Virus record (IMG/VR): IMGVR_UViG_3300037313_001751
Coordinates: 1-64,000 of that record
Length of the DNA: 64,000 nt
DNA from: a virus
Taxonomy: Duplodnaviria > Heunggongvirae > Uroviricota > Caudoviricetes
Strand: one strand, 5' to 3'
Below the pieces are notes generated by a model. That model saw only the letters and a program-made list of their open reading frames with translations. It did not search any database and was not told where the DNA came from. The translations under genes were made by a program, and so were the position numbers. Positions 20,404 to 64,000 of this stretch are shown here, piece after piece. How positions within the stretch are numbered: position 1 is the first letter of the stretch; each line of letters starts with the position of its first letter.

Positions 20404-21951
20404 TCAAACTTTATCCTTTGGCCGTCCGAGGAACTTGTACATATAAGACTTACCATTTGGTTTCAATGCGAAAGGAAAGCCCTCAACGCTATGGATAAGC
20501 CGACGCATTTCTTTGCCCCACTCGTCATGGTCAAAACGCCGTTTTCCGTAGTGATCGTTTTCCCATTCCCTATACTGAATATATAGCGCCGAACTATGGA
20601 TGAAGTTATCGTTGCCAAATCCGTTTGGCAGTAGATAAGCCCATTCTTCACAAGGGTTCATCACGCGAATGTCTTCTTGCGCTAATTTCATCTGGCTCTC
20701 GAAGCGAACCAATGGATCTTCACCCCGTTCATCCACACTCTGCCACAGTGCGTGAAAATCTACTGAGTTGGTAAACGCAAAGTTGGTTTGCTTTTTGAAC
20801 CGGATTCCTATGAAACGCCTTGCTCCAGTCTCGTCACGAATCAACTGGTCGACTTCTCTGTTACTAGCACCGATAAAAACCGCATTTTGTTTCACCAATA
20901 TGACGTTATTGGTGCGCATCACGCGTCGAACCAACGTATCGGATGTAATCAGGTTTTTGACGTAGTCAACATCGGCCCTTGAGGCGAACCCCATCTCGTC
21001 CAAAATCAATACACAATTGTCCCAAATATCAATGTTCCTGTCATCTGTTATCTGGTTAAAATCTGTGCTAGCGGTCAACTCGCAAAGCGGCGATACCAGC
21101 CTCTTCATCCATTCAGATTTCCCAGTACCTTGGACTCCGAGGATGATCGGCATAAGGTGGTTGGTAACAGGTAAATTTTGGATCTTTCGCTTAACCTGCC
21201 AGATGAATTTCTTTATGATGCCGACAATAAAATCAACATCCATCAACGTTGTATCAAATGTATTGTTGACCATATCCTGCCACAACTGATCGACTTCTTC
21301 GATAGGAATTCGTGAATGGCCATACAAAATACCAGCGAATATTTCGGCTCGCCTGTTTAGTTGCTCAGTCTTAAGCCAGTCTTGAATAACGTCATCAATC
21401 TCACCTGCAGTAAAACGCAGGTCCAACTCCCTTGCCTTTATCCGCAGCGTCCGTGCTAAGTCTTCTGTAGTAATATGGCGCTCCTTGCACGCCAAGATAT
21501 CCTGATATAGGCGTTGCTCCTGCTTTATCGCCGCTATGTCTTCGCTTGTAGCGTTTGCGAGGCGGGCGTTGACTTTTGCTAACTCAGCTTCGACATCATA
21601 CCCTTCGTGGTAGACCTTTGTGTGCTGAGTGATGCTTTTCTTATAATTAACTTTGATGTTGAACTTGTCGCAATAAAGCCGCAAAAATATTGCTGGTGTT
21701 TTTGGATCTCCTCCTAATTCATCTCTCACCTTTCTTATTTCGATTGCCCTATTCCACTCGCGTTTGGTTATGAGTCGCTCTCTCAGGAAAAAATCACGGA
21801 TGCGTGTGTGGTTACCTTCGAGGTTTAACAAATCGATATAGTCATACGGATCAATATCAAGATTGCGCGCTTTCCTTGAACCAAGATCCGCTAGTATCTC
21901 CTCATGCAAATCGTCTGTATGTGGTGCTGGTAGGGGTATTACATTGTTCAT
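20404..21951 (-). CDS. phage/plasmid primase-associated P-loop ATPase (D5 / VirE / P4 primase C-terminal type)
   Basis: Walker A ILGVQGTGKS; Walker B VLILDEMGF; then RRVMRTNNVILVKQNAVFIGASN...ETGARRFIGIRF typical of VirE/P4-primase helicase modules. Confidence 0.7.
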   Translation of the reverse strand: MNNVIPLPAPHTDDLHEEILADLGSRKARNLDIDPYDYIDLLNLEGNHTRIRDFFLRERLITKREWNRAIEIRKVRDELGGDPKTPAIFLRLYCDKFNIKVNYKKSITQHTKVYHEGYDVEAELAKVNARLANATSEDIAAIKQEQRLYQDILACKERHITTEDLARTLRIKARELDLRFTAGEIDDVIQDWLKTEQLNRRAEIFAGILYGHSRIPIEEVDQLWQDMVNNTFDTTLMDVDFIVGIIKKFIWQVKRKIQNLPVTNHLMPIILGVQGTGKSEWMKRLVSPLCELTASTDFNQITDDRNIDIWDNCVLILDEMGFASRADVDYVKNLITSDTLVRRVMRTNNVILVKQNAVFIGASNREVDQLIRDETGARRFIGIRFKKQTNFAFTNSVDFHALWQSVDERGEDPLVRFESQMKLAQEDIRVMNPCEEWAYLLPNGFGNDNFIHSSALYIQYREWENDHYGKRRFDHDEWGKEMRRLIHSVEGFPFALKPNGKSYMYKFLGRPKDKV

Positions 21952-31425: not shown

Positions 31426-33345
31426 ATGACTACGCTCACAAAAGACGACCTTACAGACAATATTCATCAATTGGCCTATCGTGACCATGCACGGCTCAAG
31501 ACCGAAATGTACTTGGGATCACGCAGCCTGCATACCCAATCGATCCTTTGCTTGCCAGATTCTGACAGCTTGTTTATCAATATCAACGAGTCCTTTAACG
31601 CTACTGGAATGCAATTAGAGGAGATTAGTTGGGTTCAGGCCTTGGCTACTTACGTGCGTGAGATCATTGATAATGGTCTTGATGAATTTGCACACGGTTA
31701 TGGATCACGACTCGACGTTACCTACAACGCTGCAACTTGCGAAATTACCGTGAAGGATGACGGGCGAGGCATACCGATTGATCATGCAGTCGCAGCTTTA
31801 ACCCAACCTATGACTGGCCGTAATTTTGGAGAAAGAAAGGAGATTGTTGGCACAAATGGATATGGCGCATCAGCTGTTTCGAACACATCGGAATATTTCG
31901 ATTTCACAGTGTGTCAAACTGGCAAGAAACTAGAATGTTCGATTCGAGAAGGCGAGCCGAAAATAGGCGGCAAACTCGAGATCTCTGAACCTCAAGTGAC
32001 TAGCTATAGAGGCAGCCACACCGGCACGATGATTTCCTTCAAGCCCAGCAAACATGTATTTAGACATTTGACATTGCCGGACAGGTTTTTGAAAACCCGG
32101 ATGTTTGAGATTGCAGTGTGCAACCCACATTACAAAATTTATTACAATGGAGAATTGTTAAAAATTAAATCACGGATAGAAAGCTCTCTCTTTCCTAACC
32201 GAAAAACGATCCGCATAGAAGTAGTTAATTCGCCGATGAAATTTAAGAGCATCTTTTTCCTCGTGCCTAAATTTGTCGAATCAGGCGATCACTATCATAC
32301 GCTTGTTAACAACATATTCGCCCATAATGGCGGCATCCACATTGACACATTTAAGCGTGTTTTTCCAGGGTCTTTACTACGAGCATTAGAGAGGGAGTCC
32401 AAAAGGCGCAAACTGGTGCCAAACCGTTCTGATATCAGCGAAGGATTGCTTGTCTACAACATAACCACTATGCAACAGCCTGATTTTGATAGCCAGTCGA
32501 AATCACGGCTCATCAATGAGGACGCTGGCGACATCATACGTCGGTTTTTCGAAAATGACGATTTCATCAAATCCTTTATAAAGGAGAATGCCGAATGGAT
32601 TGACGAGATCTATCAACGCTGCGCAGACCGGACGCAAAGGCGTGATGCAAGTGAGCTATCGAAATTAAGCAAGAAGGTTCTTCGCAACAAAGTGCCTGGA
32701 TTGATGGATGCCACAGCTTCCCGCCGAAATGATTGCATCCTTTTCCTTGCAGAAGGTGATTCGGCCATTGGCGGCATGGCAAGTGTGCGGAATCCCGAAA
32801 TTCATGGCGGCCTTGCGTTGCGCGGCAAAATCATGAATGTAAATGGTGAAAACCCGAAGAAAGTTTTGGATAATAAATGCCTCACCGAGATTATGAATTC
32901 GATTGGCCTTGTGATTGGCCAGGAGGCTAAGCGTCATAATTTAAGATATGGCAAGGTGTACCTTGCAACCGATATGGACCATGACGGCTTCAATATTGCT
33001 GCGTTGTTGATAAACTTTTTCTACACATATTGGCCTGAATTGTTTAACCCTGAACAACCACCATTTGTCTACGTATTTCAAACGCCGTTCGTTATCGCAG
33101 AAAAAGGCCGGCACAGAAAATACTGGTACGCGCATGATTACAACGGTTTCGATCCTAAGGATTATGTTGGCTGGTCAATCACTCGGGCAAAAGGCTTGGG
33201 AACCCTCAGCGAATTAGATTGGGAACATTCGATGCATAATCCGATTTTGATGCCGATAGTTGAAGACGGTAATTTGCATGATTCTTTGGATCTGATCTTT
33301 TCGCCAAAGAAGGCCGATGCAAGGAAACAGTGGATTGGACTCTAA
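31426..33345 (+). CDS. type II DNA topoisomerase, ATPase + Toprim subunit (T4 gp39/gp60-like, GyrB/ParE-related)
   Basis: GHKL ATPase motifs (EIIDNGLDE, VKDDGRGIP, GTNGYGAS); Toprim ILFLAEGDSA...; DMDHDGFNI acidic motif. Confidence 0.85.
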   Translation: MTTLTKDDLTDNIHQLAYRDHARLKTEMYLGSRSLHTQSILCLPDSDSLFININESFNATGMQLEEISWVQALATYVREIIDNGLDEFAHGYGSRLDVTYNAATCEITVKDDGRGIPIDHAVAALTQPMTGRNFGERKEIVGTNGYGASAVSNTSEYFDFTVCQTGKKLECSIREGEPKIGGKLEISEPQVTSYRGSHTGTMISFKPSKHVFRHLTLPDRFLKTRMFEIAVCNPHYKIYYNGELLKIKSRIESSLFPNRKTIRIEVVNSPMKFKSIFFLVPKFVESGDHYHTLVNNIFAHNGGIHIDTFKRVFPGSLLRALERESKRRKLVPNRSDISEGLLVYNITTMQQPDFDSQSKSRLINEDAGDIIRRFFENDDFIKSFIKENAEWIDEIYQRCADRTQRRDASELSKLSKKVLRNKVPGLMDATASRRNDCILFLAEGDSAIGGMASVRNPEIHGGLALRGKIMNVNGENPKKVLDNKCLTEIMNSIGLVIGQEAKRHNLRYGKVYLATDMDHDGFNIAALLINFFYTYWPELFNPEQPPFVYVFQTPFVIAEKGRHRKYWYAHDYNGFDPKDYVGWSITRAKGLGTLSELDWEHSMHNPILMPIVEDGNLHDSLDLIFSPKKADARKQWIGL

Positions 33346-34711
33346 CACAATGACTTGGACAAGTATGCAACCGAGCGATTATATCCTAACAACCTCACAT
33401 GGATTTTCCGTCTACGCGTGTGAATCGCGTGCCATTCCGAAAGTAACTGATGGACTAAAAGATTCGCAGCGCAAAATGCTATGGATAATGAGGAACAAGT
33501 CCGACAAACTTAAAACAATATCTTTAGCAGGAGAGTGCATCAGTAGTAACCTATACCTTCATGGCGACCAGTCGGCATCTGACACAATTTCGATGATGGC
33601 AGCACCGTTTTGCAATAATGTTCCCTTGTTCGACGGTATCGGATCATTCGGGACGAGGACTGCGCCCACCGGCTGGGGCGCAGCACGTTATACATACGTT
33701 AAGCGCGGCAAAGCTGCTCAGCACCTCGTATACCCGGACCTTGACATTATTCCGTTAAAGGAAAATTATGATGGCTCAGCAATGGAGCCGATACATTTCT
33801 TGCCGATCATCCCGTTGGTGCTTCTAAACGGAATATCGGGGATAGCCGTTGGCTATTCAACGGACATCTTATCCCGGTCACTACAAGACCTAATTGATGC
33901 CTGCATAAGCGTCCTTGACAACAAAGTTCCAGCAAGCCTACGCCCTGCCTATACCTACCTCAATTGCTCTGTTGCTCCAATTGGCCTAAACGTATGGGAA
34001 TTTTCGGGCAAAGTAGCGATAATTGATACGTCAACAATCCGTGTTTATGAACTGCCTCCTGAACTAACACTTGAAAAATTCAAAGAGCGGCTGAATGAAT
34101 TCGAGGATAAAGGTCACATCAATAGCTATACCGACCGCTCAACTAAAGCAATCGATATAACAATCAAATTTCCTCGTGGTTCAATTAGGGATTGGACGGA
34201 TGAACAAGCTGTTGATTTCCTCAAACTAAAGCAGAAAAAAACTGAGCGAATAGTTGTTATTGATTGGAGTAATGATAGGATTCGACAATATCCATCAGCT
34301 GAACAACTTGTTGCTGATTTTGTCAACTGGCGGCTTAAATGGTACACGACACGATACGAAAGTAAGCTTAAAAGCGCTTCTTATGAACTCCAGTTTTGGC
34401 GGGGAATCAAGCTCTGCTTTGAGAAGGATATGCCGTCCCGTTTGCTGGCGCGCATTAACAAAAAAGAAGTTGAAGCTGACGTGTTCGACTTGACGAAATC
34501 ATTGGCCCTGGATGAAAAGCAGGTTGAACGGATTGCTGCGTTACCAACGTATCGCTGGTCACGAGAGGGTTTGGAGTTGGCCGAAGTAACTATTGATGAA
34601 CTCCAGCGCAACACTGCTGAATACAACTTGATTTTGTCTGACGAAAAGGCCATTAGGTCCATCTACAAGAAGGAACTAATGGCCCTTAAAAAGGTAAAGC
34701 TAGCTACCTAG
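33317..34711 (+). CDS. type II DNA topoisomerase, DNA breakage-reunion subunit (T4 gp52-like, GyrA-N-related)
   Basis: ESRAIPKVTDGLKDSQRKMLWIM (GyrA RALPDVRDGLKPVHRR pattern); active-site region GAARYTYVK; overlaps upstream subunit by 29 nt. Confidence 0.85.
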   Translation: MQGNSGLDSNTMTWTSMQPSDYILTTSHGFSVYACESRAIPKVTDGLKDSQRKMLWIMRNKSDKLKTISLAGECISSNLYLHGDQSASDTISMMAAPFCNNVPLFDGIGSFGTRTAPTGWGAARYTYVKRGKAAQHLVYPDLDIIPLKENYDGSAMEPIHFLPIIPLVLLNGISGIAVGYSTDILSRSLQDLIDACISVLDNKVPASLRPAYTYLNCSVAPIGLNVWEFSGKVAIIDTSTIRVYELPPELTLEKFKERLNEFEDKGHINSYTDRSTKAIDITIKFPRGSIRDWTDEQAVDFLKLKQKKTERIVVIDWSNDRIRQYPSAEQLVADFVNWRLKWYTTRYESKLKSASYELQFWRGIKLCFEKDMPSRLLARINKKEVEADVFDLTKSLALDEKQVERIAALPTYRWSREGLELAEVTIDELQRNTAEYNLILSDEKAIRSIYKKELMALKKVKLAT

Positions 34712-36413: not shown

Positions 36414-39400
36414 TTACAATCCCTCCCAGGGCTTCGTGCGGCGTGTTGGCGTTGCTAGTTTGAACGTATGATCGACGTAGTCGAAATTTGGATTATAGAA
36501 TGGATCCATATCTAACTGGCGACCCCATTTTTGCCGCATATACGCCTGGGACCTACGATAGCGATGTATCTTATCGGGGTCTTCATCCGATCCTCGGCTC
36601 GCTGACTCGTAGTGGAACAATTCAGCAAAGGGCGTCCATACAACTTTTAGTCCGTGTTCTCGCACACGCAAACAAAAATCGACATCGTTATATGACACGG
36701 GTAAATTGTCAGCATCAAGCCCTCCCAGTTCAAGGTACAGTTCTTTTGTTACAGCAAGACATGCGCCGGTCACAGCACTAACCTCGCGTGTCAGTGCATA
36801 CTGCCCTACGTAACCACCGCTATTTTCATCATCATAGTGTCCAAAATGTCCTGCAACACCATCGGTGCCGACTCCAACAACAACGCCAGCATGTTGAATC
36901 CGACCATCGCCGTATAGCAGTTTTGCGCCGACAACACCCACATCTGGCCTAGATACGATCGACACCATCTCGCGCAACCAGTTTCGATCTTTGACCTTTG
37001 TGTCATTGTTAAGCAAGACTAAAATATCGCCACTGCTTTCCTTAGCTCCGAAATTGTTGATCGCCGAATAATTGAAAGGTCCGGGGTAAGAGACCACCCG
37101 GATATTGGACGTCTTAGAATATTGCTCAAGTAGGAATAGCGCACTCTCCTCCTTGCTGCCATTGTCGACAATAACCACCTCAAAATTATCATAATCAGTA
37201 TCTAGGACACCACCAATACACTGCGACAGCAAGCTAGCCCTGTCCCGTGTCGGTATAATAATTGAAACTTTTGGCGTTGGCACTGGCAGTGGCCAAATAA
37301 CACGGCTCCATTCAGCAGCCAACTTCGCCGGCGCAACTTTTGCACCTTTGATATGTTTACTGTGTAGGTAGTCGGCAATTGCTCGCCGCGCAGCGGCAAC
37401 ACACTGGTCCAGTTGCGACTGAGAAAACGAGCCCTTTTCGGGGTCGAGACGCCAGTGATACAGCACGGCTGGAATATGATAAATTTTGTCCGTTTTCGCG
37501 GCACACCTCAGCGTGAGATCATAATCCTGGCTGCCGTCAACAATGCCTTCCCTGAAGCCGCCGACTGATTCGACCAACGACCGCCTATAAACACCTAGGT
37601 GGCTGAACATATTGTGGCCGAACATAAGGTCAATGTTGAAATCTGGCTTGAAATACGGCTGGAGGCGTCTCTTGTCCGGCCCCATCCGATCTTCGTCGCT
37701 GTAGATCATATCGAGGCTTTTGTTATCATTAAGCGCCACTACAACTTCATACATTGCGGTCTCTGCTAAGAAATCATCATGGTCCATCAGCAGGATGAAC
37801 TCACCCTTTGCTAATTTTATCGCAGAGTTACTCGCAGCGGCTATATGGCCGTTTGTGGAACGCCATGTAACTTTGATCCGCTTATTTTTCGATGCCTCCC
37901 TCCGAATAGCTCTCCGTGTCTCTTTGTTGGTTGATGCGTCGTCAGCGATGCACAATTCCCAGTTGTCATATAGCTGTGCTTCGATACTTGCGATCGCGTC
38001 CCTGAGATAGCTTGGCTTTGTATTGTATGTTGGCATAACCACGGAAATTAGTGGCTTGTATTGCAGTTTGGCGATGTGGCTCCTTATTAGCTCGCGATCT
38101 CGTGAAGTCAGCGTATCGTTGTGCCGCACCCAATTATCGTAATCTGTCGGCTCAAAACCACCCCGTGCCGGCTCTTTCCTTCTGTCGCCTATTAGTGACG
38201 TCAGCCGGCGTCGCACATTCACTGGAACATATGATCCTAACACTCGCACCGGCGCAGTAGCCCGCCACATTGTTGAGTTCTTCAACATGTCGCGTTCAGC
38301 CTGCACACTGCTAAGCTGCGCCTGCATAGCGTGCAGGTGGTTCCGCAATGCGTTGATCTCTTCGACATCGGTCACAACTTGAACCGGTGACTGCGCCTGG
38401 GGCGCGGCAAGTCTCAGAGCCTCAGACAGCGCAGCAGACAGCCTCGCTTTCTCAGCGTTTGCGACGGATGCGATGGAGGTCAGACGACCAATTTCATTTC
38501 GCAAAGTGTCTGTCTCATCGACATGTTTGTTTGTAGCAGCCTCTAGTTGCTGAATACGGCCGACGCTTTTCTGAAAGCTTATTCGCTGTTCGTCTAGCTG
38601 GTTCGATAAGAGCGCAATCTGCGTTTCCATTTGTTCTGATTGTGCTTGCGCAGTCGTCATTTTTGCAGTAAGCGCGTCGATTTCTTGCAGTCGTGTAGCA
38701 TCGGCGACATTGTGATCAGCTACTACCTTAGCTAATTCTGCGTGTTTATCACTTAACTCTTGCTGCTTTTGATTGAGCTGCACTTGTAGGCCTGCTAACT
38801 GACTACGCAGGGACGAAAGGTTTAACCGCTGGCGAATTAATTCGACAAACCCATGCAGCAAATCGCGGGTTACCGGCCCCTTTTGCAACAGGAAAGCGTG
38901 TGGCGCTATAAACGATGCATCAAACGTTGTTACGGGTGCAAACCCAACGTCTGCAAATTTGTTAAGCCACCAAATTGTTGGCTTAACATTTATGTGGGTC
39001 GGTTCTATGATGTCGATTGGTGAAGATGAAAACAGCACGCGTGGTGCCGCATCGGCCATATTGTAAATTGCCTGTAGCGCCTCTTCTTCGCTCATATGTT
39101 CAAGCACCTCGATGCAGACGATCAAATCGAAGATGCCATTAAATCGATCTGTTAAACTCCCTTGTTCCACAAACGGCCGTACATCTGGCCTTACCTGGGA
39201 CACAGCAAAATTGGAAATATCCCTTCCATACGCTTCAATACCCCGATCCCATAATGCCTCCACCAAAAACCCATGTGCACAGCCAGCGTCAAATACTGTT
39301 TTCGGTGCGAGACTGCGCACAATCTCATCGGCTATGCCGCCAAAAAACAACCCCCATTCGGGCTCTTCGCGAGCATAGGGTTTTTGCCCGCAATGCGTCC

Positions 39401-39455
39401 GATAATAATCAGCGTTATAAGTCTCGTCCACGTCGTATCCAGTTTGTTCGTCCAT
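36414..39455 (-). CDS. multidomain glycosyltransferase: N-terminal SAM-MTase + coiled-coil + two family-2 glycosyltransferase (GT-A) domains
   Basis: 1013 aa; MTase motif I VFDAGCAHGFLVEAL; GT2 #1 ISVVMPTYNTKPSYLRDAIASIEAQLYDNWELCIADDAS; GT2 #2 VSIIIPTRDRASLLSQCIGGVLDTDYDNFEVVIVDNGS; DxD-type acidic motifs present. Confidence 0.8.
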   Translation of the reverse strand: MDEQTGYDVDETYNADYYRTHCGQKPYAREEPEWGLFFGGIADEIVRSLAPKTVFDAGCAHGFLVEALWDRGIEAYGRDISNFAVSQVRPDVRPFVEQGSLTDRFNGIFDLIVCIEVLEHMSEEEALQAIYNMADAAPRVLFSSSPIDIIEPTHINVKPTIWWLNKFADVGFAPVTTFDASFIAPHAFLLQKGPVTRDLLHGFVELIRQRLNLSSLRSQLAGLQVQLNQKQQELSDKHAELAKVVADHNVADATRLQEIDALTAKMTTAQAQSEQMETQIALLSNQLDEQRISFQKSVGRIQQLEAATNKHVDETDTLRNEIGRLTSIASVANAEKARLSAALSEALRLAAPQAQSPVQVVTDVEEINALRNHLHAMQAQLSSVQAERDMLKNSTMWRATAPVRVLGSYVPVNVRRRLTSLIGDRRKEPARGGFEPTDYDNWVRHNDTLTSRDRELIRSHIAKLQYKPLISVVMPTYNTKPSYLRDAIASIEAQLYDNWELCIADDASTNKETRRAIRREASKNKRIKVTWRSTNGHIAAASNSAIKLAKGEFILLMDHDDFLAETAMYEVVVALNDNKSLDMIYSDEDRMGPDKRRLQPYFKPDFNIDLMFGHNMFSHLGVYRRSLVESVGGFREGIVDGSQDYDLTLRCAAKTDKIYHIPAVLYHWRLDPEKGSFSQSQLDQCVAAARRAIADYLHSKHIKGAKVAPAKLAAEWSRVIWPLPVPTPKVSIIIPTRDRASLLSQCIGGVLDTDYDNFEVVIVDNGSKEESALFLLEQYSKTSNIRVVSYPGPFNYSAINNFGAKESSGDILVLLNNDTKVKDRNWLREMVSIVSRPDVGVVGAKLLYGDGRIQHAGVVVGVGTDGVAGHFGHYDDENSGGYVGQYALTREVSAVTGACLAVTKELYLELGGLDADNLPVSYNDVDFCLRVREHGLKVVWTPFAELFHYESASRGSDEDPDKIHRYRRSQAYMRQKWGRQLDMDPFYNPNFDYVDHTFKLATPTRRTKPWEGL

Positions 39456-53597: not shown

Positions 53598-55439
53598 TTA
53601 TCCGCGCATTGTCGTCGTTAGGATCTTTTTTTTTGAGTCGGACACTGCTTTTGTTTGGCTTTCGCCGACCGGCGCCGCAGCTGGCGCATCGCCGCCACCA
53701 GCCCCACCTGGGTCGGTAGCTGCATCATGCGATGCTGCTGCATCAAAGCCATTGCATGCGTGGTGTGGATCACTGCCTGCGTAGCCTCCTGCGAGATAGG
53801 CACGGGGCAGACCAGCATAATATGCGCCAACGCCTAAGAGGTAGCTAGGGTGGTGGCTACGATGCTTATGATGCAGCTTCTTCTCGCCGAGGCGGATTAA
53901 TTCCTCCTTAGCGATTGTCTTCTTTGCATTGGTTCCACGCGCCTTCTTTGGCTTGCCCACATTTTTGATATCTTTGTCGACATGCTCGCCCTTATTGCCG
54001 CGACGAGCTTCATAGACTTCTGGCCCTTTAACGACGTTAGGAATGTCCTCACCAACATTCTCATCGGTCTTATCGGTCGCAGCCTTTACAAGTTGTGCAA
54101 CGGTCTGGATATTACCTTGTGACGTGTCTCCGGCGATCTTTTTGAGCGCAGTCTGATCTGTTGAATCCATGCCCGCTAGAACATTCTGCACTGGCTGGTT
54201 TGCTACGCTTGGATCTGTTGCCATTTTGCCAGCTATTTTACTAATGGCTGTGTTGGTTTCATTTTCATCATCAGGTGACGTAGGGGAAGTTGGTGCTACT
54301 GGTCCATCCTCGCGCATGCTCTTCGCTAGCTGAACCGAATATGTCCCCGGATCACAACCATATAGCTGCGCAAAAGATTCTAACACAGAAGGGCCGTCAT
54401 CTTCGAGAAGATCGCTGGTGAAATTCTCCACAACCTGAGCGGCTTTACCCTTGCCGAACAGTTGAATGTTTGTTTCAATCACTGACGCGATGCCACGAGC
54501 TAATTTTTCAGACCGGGGTACCACACGATCTGCTTCGATCATCTCGCGAAGTTTGTCAGCTCCAAGTTTCTTCTCGCCAATGTAACCAGCCATCCAAATT
54601 GGGTTTTGCACCGCTTTCGATGTGACATTTTGTGTGAAACGCAGGAATTTATCGCCTGTCATTGTTTTGGCAGCTTCGCTTAACAGCCAATCGGTCAGGT
54701 CTTCCAGCTTCACTGTTTTTAGAAGCTTTTCACCAGCTTCTGCTAGGTTGATTGCTTCGTCTACGTCTTTCTCTTTGCGCGCATCGCGCTTATATTGCGA
54801 CGCTTTGCGGCGTGTTTTCACGTCGTCGTCTGCGTCATCATCGTTTCGGTAGGATTTACCCTCTTTGCGTATTGAAGATCTGCTTTCTGACTTTACCGCG
54901 CGGCCGAGCGGTTCACCGGGAGTGCCAGCAGCCGCGTCCGCGCCAGCAAATTCATCAGCAGGCGACGCTTGCTCAGCACCAGTGTCCGCTACAGCCATAT
55001 CATTGCCCACGTTCGGACCAGCTGGAGCATTCATATCATTCTGCGGCGCAATTTTGCCCTCGACTTGCAAAATCGCTGTGTTAATTGAATCTTTGGCGGC
55101 ACGCACTGTCTCAAGCGCATTCTGAATGTTGGTATTCGCAGCATGCTCAAATGTTGCAGCAGCTTCTGGTCCGAATGCGCCCTTCATAGCGTCGGCCAAG
55201 GGCATGATTTCTTCAGCACCTAATTCTGCAAGATGCTCAGCGATTTTTTGCAGCCGGTCACAAACGTCTTTTGCTGCCAGAATTAGCTTGGCTTGCTCCA
55301 AATCGTTTTCAAGCAGTTTTGACAAACTGGTAGGGTCAAGTTGCTCTCGCAACGTCTTCGCTTTTGCGAGCAAAGCCTTCTTTTCGTGAAACTCTTTCTT
55401 AAGTGCGCGAAGCTTTTCGACTTTCTCTTTGATATTCAT
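53598..55439 (-). CDS. large hypothetical protein (Ala/Lys/Glu-rich; structural or scaffold-like)
   Basis: 613-aa ORF, N-terminal coiled-coil region. Confidence 0.55.
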   Translation of the reverse strand: MNIKEKVEKLRALKKEFHEKKALLAKAKTLREQLDPTSLSKLLENDLEQAKLILAAKDVCDRLQKIAEHLAELGAEEIMPLADAMKGAFGPEAAATFEHAANTNIQNALETVRAAKDSINTAILQVEGKIAPQNDMNAPAGPNVGNDMAVADTGAEQASPADEFAGADAAAGTPGEPLGRAVKSESRSSIRKEGKSYRNDDDADDDVKTRRKASQYKRDARKEKDVDEAINLAEAGEKLLKTVKLEDLTDWLLSEAAKTMTGDKFLRFTQNVTSKAVQNPIWMAGYIGEKKLGADKLREMIEADRVVPRSEKLARGIASVIETNIQLFGKGKAAQVVENFTSDLLEDDGPSVLESFAQLYGCDPGTYSVQLAKSMREDGPVAPTSPTSPDDENETNTAISKIAGKMATDPSVANQPVQNVLAGMDSTDQTALKKIAGDTSQGNIQTVAQLVKAATDKTDENVGEDIPNVVKGPEVYEARRGNKGEHVDKDIKNVGKPKKARGTNAKKTIAKEELIRLGEKKLHHKHRSHHPSYLLGVGAYYAGLPRAYLAGGYAGSDPHHACNGFDAAASHDAATDPGGAGGGDAPAAAPVGESQTKAVSDSKKKILTTTMRG

Positions 55440-61690: not shown

Positions 61691-62015
61691 CGTCGGCCTG
61701 CCTGTATTTTTCCGTTACGCGGGCCAGCATTTCGGCAGCTAAATTCAGCCCCTCTTCAATTCCTAACGCATAATTCTGATTCTCGTTCAGCTCACGATAG
61801 CTTTTAAGCCTGAATATCATGTTATCGAGATCCTCTAGGAGGTACATGATTTGGTCAGCTTGACTTTCAACCACTGGTGTGAGGTCACCGGACAAAACTT
61901 CATCCTCCGTTGAGGTTATATTTTCGGCTATTCTTATATAGCTTTGCATTTCGTCCAAATGCTTTGCCATAGAAAGATCTCCTTTAAGTATCAATTTATT
62001 TATTGCGTATAGCAA
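61683..62015 (-). CDS. hypothetical protein
   Basis: 110-aa ORF. Confidence 0.4.
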   Translation of the reverse strand: MLYAINKLILKGDLSMAKHLDEMQSYIRIAENITSTEDEVLSGDLTPVVESQADQIMYLLEDLDNMIFRLKSYRELNENQNYALGIEEGLNLAAEMLARVTEKYRQADVD

Positions 62016-62019
62016 TCTG

Positions 62020-62523
62020 CTACCGATTTGACATCTCGCCTGCCAATTGTAGCACAGAGGTCCTTACCTTAGCTGGTTCGCCTTCAGCCTGTGGCGACGC
62101 TTCCTGTCGTGTCGTCGGCTTTAGTTGTTGTAGCGGCCTGGCAAGCATAGCAGGTGGATGTTTGACGGCAGGACTACCATCCTTATTGCTTATGCGCATG
62201 TTTGTAGTGTCATAGGCGAGTGTAATTTTGTGACCGACACCAGCCGACGAACGTGTTTTTAGCAGTTGTAATTCGTATTCGCCAACTTCACGCAACGCTG
62301 GTGAAGAGAATATCGCCATAACATTGTCCGCGGTATTAAATTTTGAAATGCCACCAGCAATATGGCTTGCATCAAAATGACTTTCTTGTATAGCGGAATT
62401 ATGCGTCAAAATGCCATTGGCATAGAAGAGATTGTTGCCAGTGACCTCCAAGTCCAACGTCGACACTTCACCGACCTCTTCAATGCTAACAATTTCGTCC
62501 TCTAATTCAAAAAGCTGACGCAT
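62020..62523 (-). CDS. DnaB-family helicase C-terminal fragment preceded by a 42-aa split-intein C-segment (IntC)
   Basis: MRQLFELEDEIVSIEEVGEVSTLDLEVTGNNLFYANGILTHN|S: intein blocks F/G ending HN+Ser, of DnaE-IntC size; followed by extein AIQESHFDASHIAGGISKFNTADNVMAIF (helicase C-terminal region); GGGAG RBS 8 nt upstream. Confidence 0.7.
   Translation of the reverse strand: MRQLFELEDEIVSIEEVGEVSTLDLEVTGNNLFYANGILTHNSAIQESHFDASHIAGGISKFNTADNVMAIFSSPALREVGEYELQLLKTRSSAGVGHKITLAYDTTNMRISNKDGSPAVKHPPAMLARPLQQLKPTTRQEASPQAEGEPAKVRTSVLQLAGEMSNR
62398..62523 (-). other. split intein C-terminal segment (IntC, 42 aa)
   Basis: Compare Npu DnaE IntC MIKIATRKYLGKQNVYDIGVERDHNFALKNGFIASN|C with ...STLDLEVTGNNLFYANGILTHN|S. 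Confidence 0.65.
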
Positions 62524-62934
62524 TTTTCAATTACTCCCATGTTATTTGCTTTCCAGTCCTCTTTCCAAATTTCGAGGGCTGGTAATCCTTGTGTCTGATA
62601 CACTATATGCGTTTTGAATCGATTGCATTCAACTGGTGAATGGTTACAGTATTATCATAGGAATAAGGCCTATCGTCCGGTGCAACTAAGTTTGAATTAG
62701 CTTGAAATGCGTTGCCATAAAACTCAATGGGTGGCGTACTCTGCCTTCACAAACAATGGCGAGCTAACCGCGCCAAATTGAGGCCAACATACCGGCGACA
62801 TAGAAAGAGGAAACTTATGTTCGACATACTGGACTACTAGCTCCATAAACCGCGTGAATTATCAACTGTCACCAGCGGAAAGGCATGCTGAAGCCGTTCA
62901 AAATTTGTTTGCAGATCGCTAGTTGAGTGGCTGT

Positions 62935-64000
62935 CTACGATTTTGTATTTATTTGCGCAAACAGGACATCTCCGACCTTTAGACCTGAGTTGATCGACTT
63001 CACACCGTTAACTGTTGGAAAGAGATGATGCTTCGAGCATTCAATGGCTTTACCAGACTTAGTGACTATCCTATAGGTTTTTTGCACCGATGGACTGGTT
63101 TTAGCTACTACCTGAACTGGCCCCTCGTTAGAGTCCAGCCAATCGCCAATGTTGACGTCTTTGATCTTAATTGGATTGCCGTTGGCTGTGACAGAGGTGT
63201 TTTCTGAAAGACATCTATTAAGCTGGCTCGCAGTAGCACATAGGATATTCAGTTCTGCTGCTAGCGCCCGCAGTTCTTCAGATGTGAACTTGTCCTTGAC
63301 AAATAGATCGCTCAGTGATACCGAGGTATTGTTTGGATACACAAGGTCCAAATAATCGACAAGCAGACCATCGACTTTTACGCCTGACTGAATTTCGTAT
63401 TCCCTGATATAAGCGCGAATATCAGCGGCAGTTGTTCCGGCACCGCGCATCGCTTTGATCTGAAGCTTGCCCCAGCTTGCACTCCTGCGCACAATAACGT
63501 TCCATTTGAGCATCGAATCTTCTGTGTTTTTTACAATCTCCTCAGTACCTAATTTGGTAATCATCGCGTCATAGCGCAGCCCAATTAAGTCTTCAGATAA
63601 TTCCAGTGTAATGTAGACGATATTCAACCCTTGTTCGACCCAGTTCAACGCAAGGTTTTGCAGGAAAAGGCTTTTGCCGGTATTGTGGCTAGAAATACCA
63701 TTTGTATAATAACGTTGGTTTTCATGACCTATAGACAGATCATAACAATCTTCAAGGCGCCGTTGTTTTTTGATATCATCCACTACGTCAAGGCCCTTAG
63801 CAGTAATGAGGATGTCACCAACTAATAGTTCCCTGACATAGCGCCAACTGCCGTTCTTGACCTGGAAAAGATGATCGTAACTAGCTCGTATTTTAATCCC
63901 ACTCTTCATTCTGACATCATAGACAATTTTGTCTGCTTTCCGCACCCACCACGTTGCTGGCACCCATCCATCCGGGCTATCAACGTAGTACTTAACGCCC
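62935..64000 (-). CDS. DnaB-family (T4 gp41 / DnaB-like) replicative helicase, N-terminal part: truncated by the window edge, contains a cis mini-intein in the P-loop and ends in a 92-aa split-intein N-segment
   Basis: Frame stays open beyond position 64000; extein GISSHN|TGKSLFLQNLALNWV...ITLELS...LLVDYLDLV...ATASQLNR carries DnaB motifs H1 (interrupted), H1a, H2, H3; C-terminal CLSENTSV...HHLFPTVNG...GDVLF is an N-intein; the track start at 63963 is a GTG inside the open frame. Confidence 0.75.
   Translation of the reverse strand, partial: GVKYYVDSPDGWVPATWWVRKADKIVYDVRMKSGIKIRASYDHLFQVKNGSWRYVRELLVGDILITAKGLDVVDDIKKQRRLEDCYDLSIGHENQRYYTNGISSHNTGKSLFLQNLALNWVEQGLNIVYITLELSEDLIGLRYDAMITKLGTEEIVKNTEDSMLKWNVIVRRSASWGKLQIKAMRGAGTTAADIRAYIREYEIQSGVKVDGLLVDYLDLVYPNNTSVSLSDLFVKDKFTSEELRALAAELNILCATASQLNRCLSENTSVTANGNPIKIKDVNIGDWLDSNEGPVQVVAKTSPSVQKTYRIVTKSGKAIECSKHHLFPTVNGVKSINSGLKVGDVLFAQINTKS
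62938..63213 (-). other. split intein N-terminal segment (IntN, 92 aa) fused after helicase motif SQLNR
   Basis: CLSENTSVTANGNPIKIKDVNIGDWL (block A) ... ECSKHHLFPTVNGVKSINSGLKVGDVLF (block B, TxxH); in-frame TAG at 62935-62937 ends it. Confidence 0.65.
63682..64000 (-). other. contiguous mini-intein inserted in the helicase Walker A loop (N-terminal part lies beyond the window)
   Basis: IRASYDHLFQVKNGSWRYVRELLVGDIL (block B) ... CYDLSIGHENQRYYTNGISSHN|T (blocks F/G); extein resumes TGKS, the P-loop GKS/T. Confidence 0.6.

Follow-up and report, generated by a model that had tools for sequence, protein, structure and literature searches.

VidaL, an intein from a viral metagenome (6vgv/6vgw), is naturally split after strand beta2, at the position called S1, and has an N-fragment of 16 aa (PMC13014065). 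The DnaB-family helicase of Mycobacterium smegmatis contains DnaBi1, an endonuclease-free intein in the Walker A loop, which is accompanied by a second intein in motif H4 (PMC4760082, PMC6195587). DnaBi1 belongs to class 3 and is inserted at GK/S, the classical DnaB site b, where the +1 residue is the Mg-coordinating Ser of the P-loop (PMC6195587). In Actinobacteria and Cyanobacteria, some DnaB genes carry one intein in the P-loop (site b) and another in motif H4 (site a) (PMC4760082); such a double-intein DnaB has been studied in M. smegmatis (PMC6195587). A different arrangement is given in the gp41 passages of Dassa et al. 2009 (PMC2677866), where gp41-1 to gp41-9 are 'fractured gene' split inteins of cyanophage-like helicases. 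Those passages place no endonuclease gene between the halves of the gp41-7 locus and, for gp41 loci, mention no contiguous P-loop intein besides; a further in-frame intein does occur at a DnaE locus in the same source. Finally, the large terminase subunits of Ackermannviridae, for example Dickeya phage LIMEstone1, hold contiguous inteins at a Walker A site (RQSGK/C...SHN/T). At the LIMEstone1 locus (L004, NC_019925.1 107703-109415), the intein has the boundaries RQSGK/CVKGDS...FLSHN/TT, and the end of a gene annotated as a homing endonuclease (F-LimIX) overlaps the terminase start by 11 nt.

Here we describe a helicase gene at the end of a 64,000-nt stretch of viral DNA (the window) which combines features of these systems. 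What interrupts its Walker A motif at GGPG/TGKS is very probably a contiguous, in-frame, class-1 intein of 188 aa without an endonuclease, hosted by the DnaB/gp41-like helicase of an uncultured jumbo phage. The intein is sequence and structural kin of VidaL; whereas VidaL is split, it is contiguous and carries about 46 extra residues, including a three-helix module, exactly at the VidaL split position. Like DnaBi1, it is endonuclease-free, sits in the Walker A loop of a DnaB-family helicase and is accompanied by a second intein in motif H4, but it is of class 1 with Cys1, its site is G/TGKS, and it is structurally less similar to 6bs8 than to VidaL. The gp41 inteins, as presented in the passages cited above, are akin to the second intein only, whose spacer likewise lacks an endonuclease gene. 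The Ackermannviridae terminase inteins, which fall into the same clade, are the best cultured-phage matches (~30% identity across 98% of the intein), but they occupy another host protein and have another insert after the N-terminal strands, in which the three-helix module is not recognisable. The intein at the window edge adds a member, from a new host lineage, to the known P-loop (VidaL-like) clade.

The minus-strand frame from 63999 enters at the window edge, meets its first stop at 62935-62937 and translates as GVKYYVDSPDGW...IRASYDHLFQVKNGSWRYVRELLVGDIL...CYDLSIGHENQRYYTNGISSHN/TGKSLFLQNL. A longer reading of the same frame gives ...GVKYYVDSPDGWVPATWWVRKADKIVYDVRMKSGIKIRASYDHLFQVKNGSWRYVRELLVGDILITAKGLDVVDDIKKQRRLEDCYDLSIGHENQRYYTNGISSHN/TGKSLFLQNLALNWVEQGLNIVYITLELSE...ATASQLNR/CLSENTSV...INTKS before the stop. 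The earlier note on this DNA had recognized intein blocks B, F and G, a terminal His-Asn and a +1 Thr, and all of them are present in the frame: block B is SYDH with His125, block F contains YDL with Asp169, and block G is SSHN. [quoted passage not shown] The +1 Thr codon is ACC at 63681-63679. From this Thr, within TGKSLFLQNL as the remaining part of Walker A, the middle extein extends to ...ATASQLNR in motif H4, and the 167-aa ORF (62523-62020) beyond the spacer begins MRQLFELEDEIVSIEEVGEVSTLDLEVTGNNLFYANGILTHN/SAIQESHFDASHIAGG. The helicase gene thus bears two intein signatures, the first of which is cut by the window edge (Table 1). A family HMM run across the window detected no further intein, and the strand opposite the intein holds only a 64-aa ORF without support.

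Table 1. Parts of the helicase gene and its two inteins, in window coordinates
Feature	Position	Strand	Remarks
First intein, residues 1-82	window-equivalent 64001-64245 = L001:5523-5767		outside window
First intein, C-terminal 106 residues (83-188 of 188)	63682..64000	-	blocks B, F, G
Helicase ATPase-domain middle extein, 156 aa	63214..63681	-	DnaB/gp41-like
Second intein N-half, 92 aa, CLSENT...NTKS	62938..63213	-	gp41-1 family, naturally split
Spacer, 411 bp	62524..62934	-	between halves of second intein
Second intein C-half, 42 aa, MRQLFELEDE...NLFYANGILTHN	62398..62523	-	TIGR01443 E 6.8e-6
Helicase C-extein, 125 aa, SAIQESHFDASHIAGGISKFNTADN..., and stop codon	62020..62397	-	

A search of public assemblies for the exact 167-aa product supplied the missing part of the gene and returned three contigs from three samples. 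One of them, L001 (7793 nt), is 100% identical to window positions 61975-64000 (2026 nt) and extends beyond it by 5767 nt; identity is 99.97% for L002 and 100% for L003. On L001, the single public contig from which the first 82 residues of the intein and the N-extein are known, the helicase ORF runs 812 nt past the window edge to an ATG. It encodes one 625-aa product, in which the N-extein (1-189) is followed by the intein (190-377), the middle extein (378-533) and the N-half of the second intein (IntN2, 534-625). The N-extein ends ...EVTIFVGGPG (recorded end ...GLNRGEVTIFVGGPG), and the intein starts CVAYNTKVRARRIKPI... and ends ...GISSHN. A primase gene lies upstream and overlaps the helicase ORF by 23 nt; directly upstream of the primase, a 514-aa ORF (L001:2329-3873) has no Pfam or PHROG match. 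The contig bears out what had been proposed from the window, namely that the frame continues beyond 64000, that the intein N-terminus and the helicase N-domain lie off-window, and that the GTG at 63963 is internal. The earlier note had further held that an intein should have a block A upstream and that splicing should rebuild a P-loop. Both tests were passed, because a block A with Cys1 (CVAYNTKV) is found on L001 and joining GGPG to TGKS restores the Walker A motif GxxxxGKS. An intein HMM search of the extended ORF, also suggested there, gave a Pfam Intein_splicing match at E 4.5e-10.

When both inteins are removed in silico, Pfam DnaB_C matches the resulting 470-aa helicase in one stretch (profile 3-252 of 255, 68.7 bits), compared with 45.3 bits and truncated coverage for the unspliced ORF. 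The assigned position inside the helicase Walker A loop was right. The best NCBIfam model for the spliced helicase is phage_DnaB, and tblastn against phage genomes gave single-piece matches in jumbo phages, with 53% identity to Sinorhizobium phage Phosso, 49% to Agrobacterium phage Atu_ph07 and 48% to Pseudomonas phage PA5oct. In the Phosso helicase, FFAGGPGTGKSLFLQNLALNW and ATASQLNRASIQE are intact, neither junction carries an insert, and the residues at the junctions are identical to ours; its second-junction stretch is also recorded as ...ATASQLNRASIQEQSFDASHMAGG..., insert-free. The primase-helicase gene order is shared with Phosso as well. A scan of IMG/VR found no close relatives of the spliced helicase. 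The insertion site G/TGKS is three residues upstream of site b (GK/S), and we do not assign the element to the DnaB site-b allele, whose insertion point is before the P-loop Ser/Thr.

The three phages just named, which hold the nearest cultured relatives of this helicase, are all jumbo phages (287-490 kb), and the window probably comes from an uncultured jumbo phage. It is phage-like in content, and its GC is even (0.44-0.49). Genes for the large and medium subunits of topoisomerase II are adjacent on the plus strand (31426-34711), and a virion protein is encoded at 53598-55439. A 1013-aa minus-strand ORF (36414-39455) has PHROG matches to a methyltransferase (residues 53-146) and to glycosyltransferases in two regions (about 470-680 and 728-845); such a modification enzyme is unusually large for a phage.

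The intein itself was examined by sequence and by fold. On the intein alone, Pfam Intein_splicing scores 32.8 bits and covers residues 83-149 only. The closest solved sequence is VidaL 6vgv (phmmer E 5.6e-10), with residues 74-187 aligned to VidaL 28-141. An exhaustive search of representatives with the 106 in-window residues retrieved 537 relatives at E<=1e-3, nearly all of which end ...SHN followed by Ser, Thr or Cys, and the in-window part reaches 130 bits against the family HMM. A word-indexed protein search with the 188-aa intein gave no match, though that collection includes the 625-aa parent protein. In an alignment of 54 relatives, G93, His125, Asp169, His187 and Asn188 are invariant. 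Thr is also the commonest +1 residue among the 145 relatives with a complete C-terminus (Thr 77, Ser 49, Cys 16). AlphaFold2 with this alignment as input predicted the HINT horseshoe fold with a pLDDT of 96 and a pTM of 0.87 (pLDDT 31 for single-sequence AlphaFold). The intein matches neither LAGLIDADG nor HNH nor any other endonuclease family, and the gap between blocks B and F is about 40 residues; as the endonuclease domain is absent, it is a mini-intein by definition. The earlier description of a contiguous mini-intein thus stands as to continuity and the missing endonuclease, but not as to minimal size, since the element has 188 aa with an insert of about 45-50 aa near its N-terminus. The GC content of the intein (0.44) matches that of the exteins (0.45-0.48), and neither GC nor GC3 shows a foreign signature relative to the exteins; nothing in the composition thus points to recent acquisition.

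The clade was then viewed by its insertion sites. In 86 of the 145 representatives with a complete C-terminus, the intein is followed by [STC]x(0-2)GK[ST], in hosts resembling helicases, UvsX/RecA-like recombinases, AAA ATPases and PhoH-like proteins; the remainder are mostly in terminase-large-subunit-like hosts, cut after GK. As judged from these junctions, it is a clade that targets P-loops. VidaL is nearest to inteins in UvsX/RecA-type P-loops (SGKSY) and not to the helicase subgroup, and from these relatives we infer the likely type of its native host protein.

Compared with VidaL and the minimal relatives of 134-141 aa (e.g. P0010, P0018, P0023, P0030), the intein has about 46 (45-50) extra residues, placed after strand beta2 and ahead of the first canonical helix. 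This linker plus module corresponds to intein residues 14-68, at S1 and beyond the window edge. The AlphaFold2 model built with an alignment gives an unstructured linker (14-30) and three helices (31-40, 46-53 and 57-66) with a pLDDT of 83-97. A similar module with the motif EYLxQFYtxEElxxYxxGDxxKLxxLWxxxQP is present in the contiguous helicase inteins P0005 and P0016 and, shortened, in P0009 and P0022. It is also found at the extreme N-terminus of proteins that continue into the intein remainder and a TGKS-helicase (P0003, P0004, P0006, P0008, P0011, P0013, P0014 and others). An HMM of ten such modules, with ours left out, scores 14.8-16.7 bits on our insert at the expected place, and 4.7 bits at best on a background of ~100 kb in six-frame translation. 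This supports, rather than proves, that our insert is divergently homologous to the modules of the relatives. The module has no Pfam match, and a small part of the intein literature made no mention of a conserved three-helix module at S1. In other clade members, longer S1 inserts give consistent sub-threshold HTH_3/HTH_31 matches (E 1e-3 to 4e-3), and one member has a NUMOD3 remnant at its S1 insert.

About half of the closest relatives begin just before or at the three-helix module, and the genomic context of two split relatives from metagenomic phages (L006:2270-5464 and L008:2170-5311) revealed a helicase fractured at S1 of the P-loop intein. The first ORF at these loci encodes the helicase N-domain, G/C and an N-fragment of 16-21 aa, ending in a stop codon (CVTYDTPVKVIRLPKI and CVTADTKVKIIKLLDLPDVAQ). 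The middle ORF, of 371-400 aa, sits exactly at the linker before the module, and the third ORF, which overlaps it by 23-26 nt, encodes the module, the intein remainder and the helicase. The layout corresponds to the 'fractured gene' organization in PMC2677866, here located at the atypical S1 site. No Pfam, PHROG or PDB sequence match was obtained for the middle ORFs. Their C-terminal motif RYDLAxF...EYHGxGH might be read as resembling the Vsr-like endonuclease described in those passages, and the ORF is a candidate for a new free-standing homing endonuclease. We also considered an origin of the module from these intervening ORFs and dropped it, as the module HMM finds no match in them.

Taken together, the fractured loci, the HTH-like inserts and the NUMOD3 remnant suggest that S1 is a second mobile-element hotspot in this clade, with the contiguous module-bearing intein as the endonuclease-free allelic state. 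A more specific version, which we put forward tentatively and consider possible rather than likely, is that this intein is an endonuclease-free allele, either precursor or revertant, of S1-fractured VidaL-type split inteins, in which the module is a functional add-on. It is based on the module opening the C-fragment within the same helicase family, on the position of the L006/L008 ORFs at the linker, and on the sub-threshold HTH matches and the NUMOD3 remnant. The module could be a helix-turn-helix in reduced form, with a former role in DNA recognition or a present one in docking of the short N-fragment.

The same fractured relatives raise the question of whether the intein here could itself be atypically split like VidaL, with its N-terminal ~16 aa and the helicase N-domain in a separate gene and the break hidden by the window edge. 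Such an arrangement would fit the closest relatives, roughly half of which have their start just before or at the module, as well as L006 and L008, fractured here by an intervening ORF. On L001, however, one continuous ORF leads from the start of the helicase across Cys1 and the module into the window, with no stop and no intervening gene. In place of the two-gene organization of VidaL, also present in L006 and L008, L001 has a single ORF, and a split is refuted for this genome unless L001 is a chimeric assembly, which makes it very improbable. We give almost no credence to a further alternative, a non-intein HINT domain (bacterial intein-like or pretoxin HINT) that is fused to an ATPase and never spliced out. 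There is a weak Pfam PT-HINT match (E 0.022), and some records label terminase members of the clade 'pretoxin HINT domain protein'; against this, the insert interrupts a Walker A motif that is intact in intein-free homologues, ends in His-Asn followed by Thr, and has true inteins as its best matches by both sequence and structure.

A decaying, splicing-dead remnant, with the helicase non-functional or bypassed by another one, is also unlikely, if somewhat less remote. Position 177 (codon 63715-63717) is Gln, where 116 of the 145 relatives have His, so that the block F stretch NHRYY reads NQRYY; this could slow the C-terminal splicing step, and it is not a known lethal change. The other 29 relatives likewise lack His at this position. 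The absence of an endonuclease means that the intein is no longer self-mobile, and the window contains a second helicase/primase-like ORF (20404-21951), with the consequence that essentiality of the helicase, and hence selection for splicing, is assumed. On the other hand, the residues known to be essential (Cys1, His125, Asp169, His187, Asn188 and Thr+1) are all intact, no stop interrupts the 625-aa frame, conservation of the exteins relative to Phosso is good down to identical junction residues, and the sequence recurs at 99.97-100% identity in three independent samples. A contiguous, presumably splicing-competent intein is the reading that we carry forward.

The second intein matches the gp41-1 structure 6qaz at E 1.5e-20. 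It is split at the canonical site, in motif H4 (SQLNR/S), and two adjacent ORFs encode its halves. The first of these terminates, together with the N-half, at the stop 62935-62937; that of the C-half starts with the ATG at 62523, about 10 nt after a GGGAG. Within the spacer (62524-62934), neither an ORF of at least 41 aa on either strand nor a promoter-like or terminator-like site was found. The earlier note had called two inteins of different architecture in one helicase gene unusual, which was overstated: DnaB genes with two inteins are on record (PMC4760082, PMC6195587), and such combinations recur in related phage helicases. Among 18 clusters (50% identity) with the same junction, the first intein is contiguous in 9 and apparently split in 9. 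In these and in neighbouring helicase clusters, counted with their slightly different P-loop junctions, the second intein may be absent, contiguous (P0003) or split (P0008, P0012, P0019, P0020). The helicase gene here is one of several intein combinations found in nature.

Splicing activity and its path are proposed from the conserved residues and established intein chemistry. With the ATP-binding loop interrupted, the precursor should be inactive, and loss of Walker A would leave it ATPase-dead, by analogy with Pho RadA and Msm DnaBi1 (discussed in PMC6195587). The reaction would start with an N-S acyl shift at Cys1, after which the thioester would be attacked by the +1 Thr in a transesterification. 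Asn188 would then cyclise with the help of His187 and release the intein, and an O-N shift would form a normal peptide bond and recreate GGPGTGKS. The same polypeptide ends in the gp41-1-type IntN2, which would trans-splice with the 167-aa product of the next ORF. With one contiguous and one split intein in the gene, a functional helicase would need one cis- and one trans-splicing event.

The contiguous VidaL-clade intein and the gp41-1-type split intein in one native protein would form a co-evolved and presumably orthogonal pair, and a contiguous relative of VidaL may serve as a template for engineering split inteins with ultra-short N-fragments. For the phage, self-splicing elements occupy both the ATP-binding loop and a DNA-binding motif of a replication enzyme whose essentiality is assumed. 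Since the helicase would exist only after cis- and trans-splicing, the two events are a potential point of post-translational control, as has been argued for mycobacterial DnaB inteins (PMC6195587). For the family, minimal, module-bearing and split forms occur side by side in the clade, including loci fractured by an intervening ORF, which is the series predicted by the 'fractured gene' model in the passages of PMC2677866 considered here, now at the atypical S1 site.
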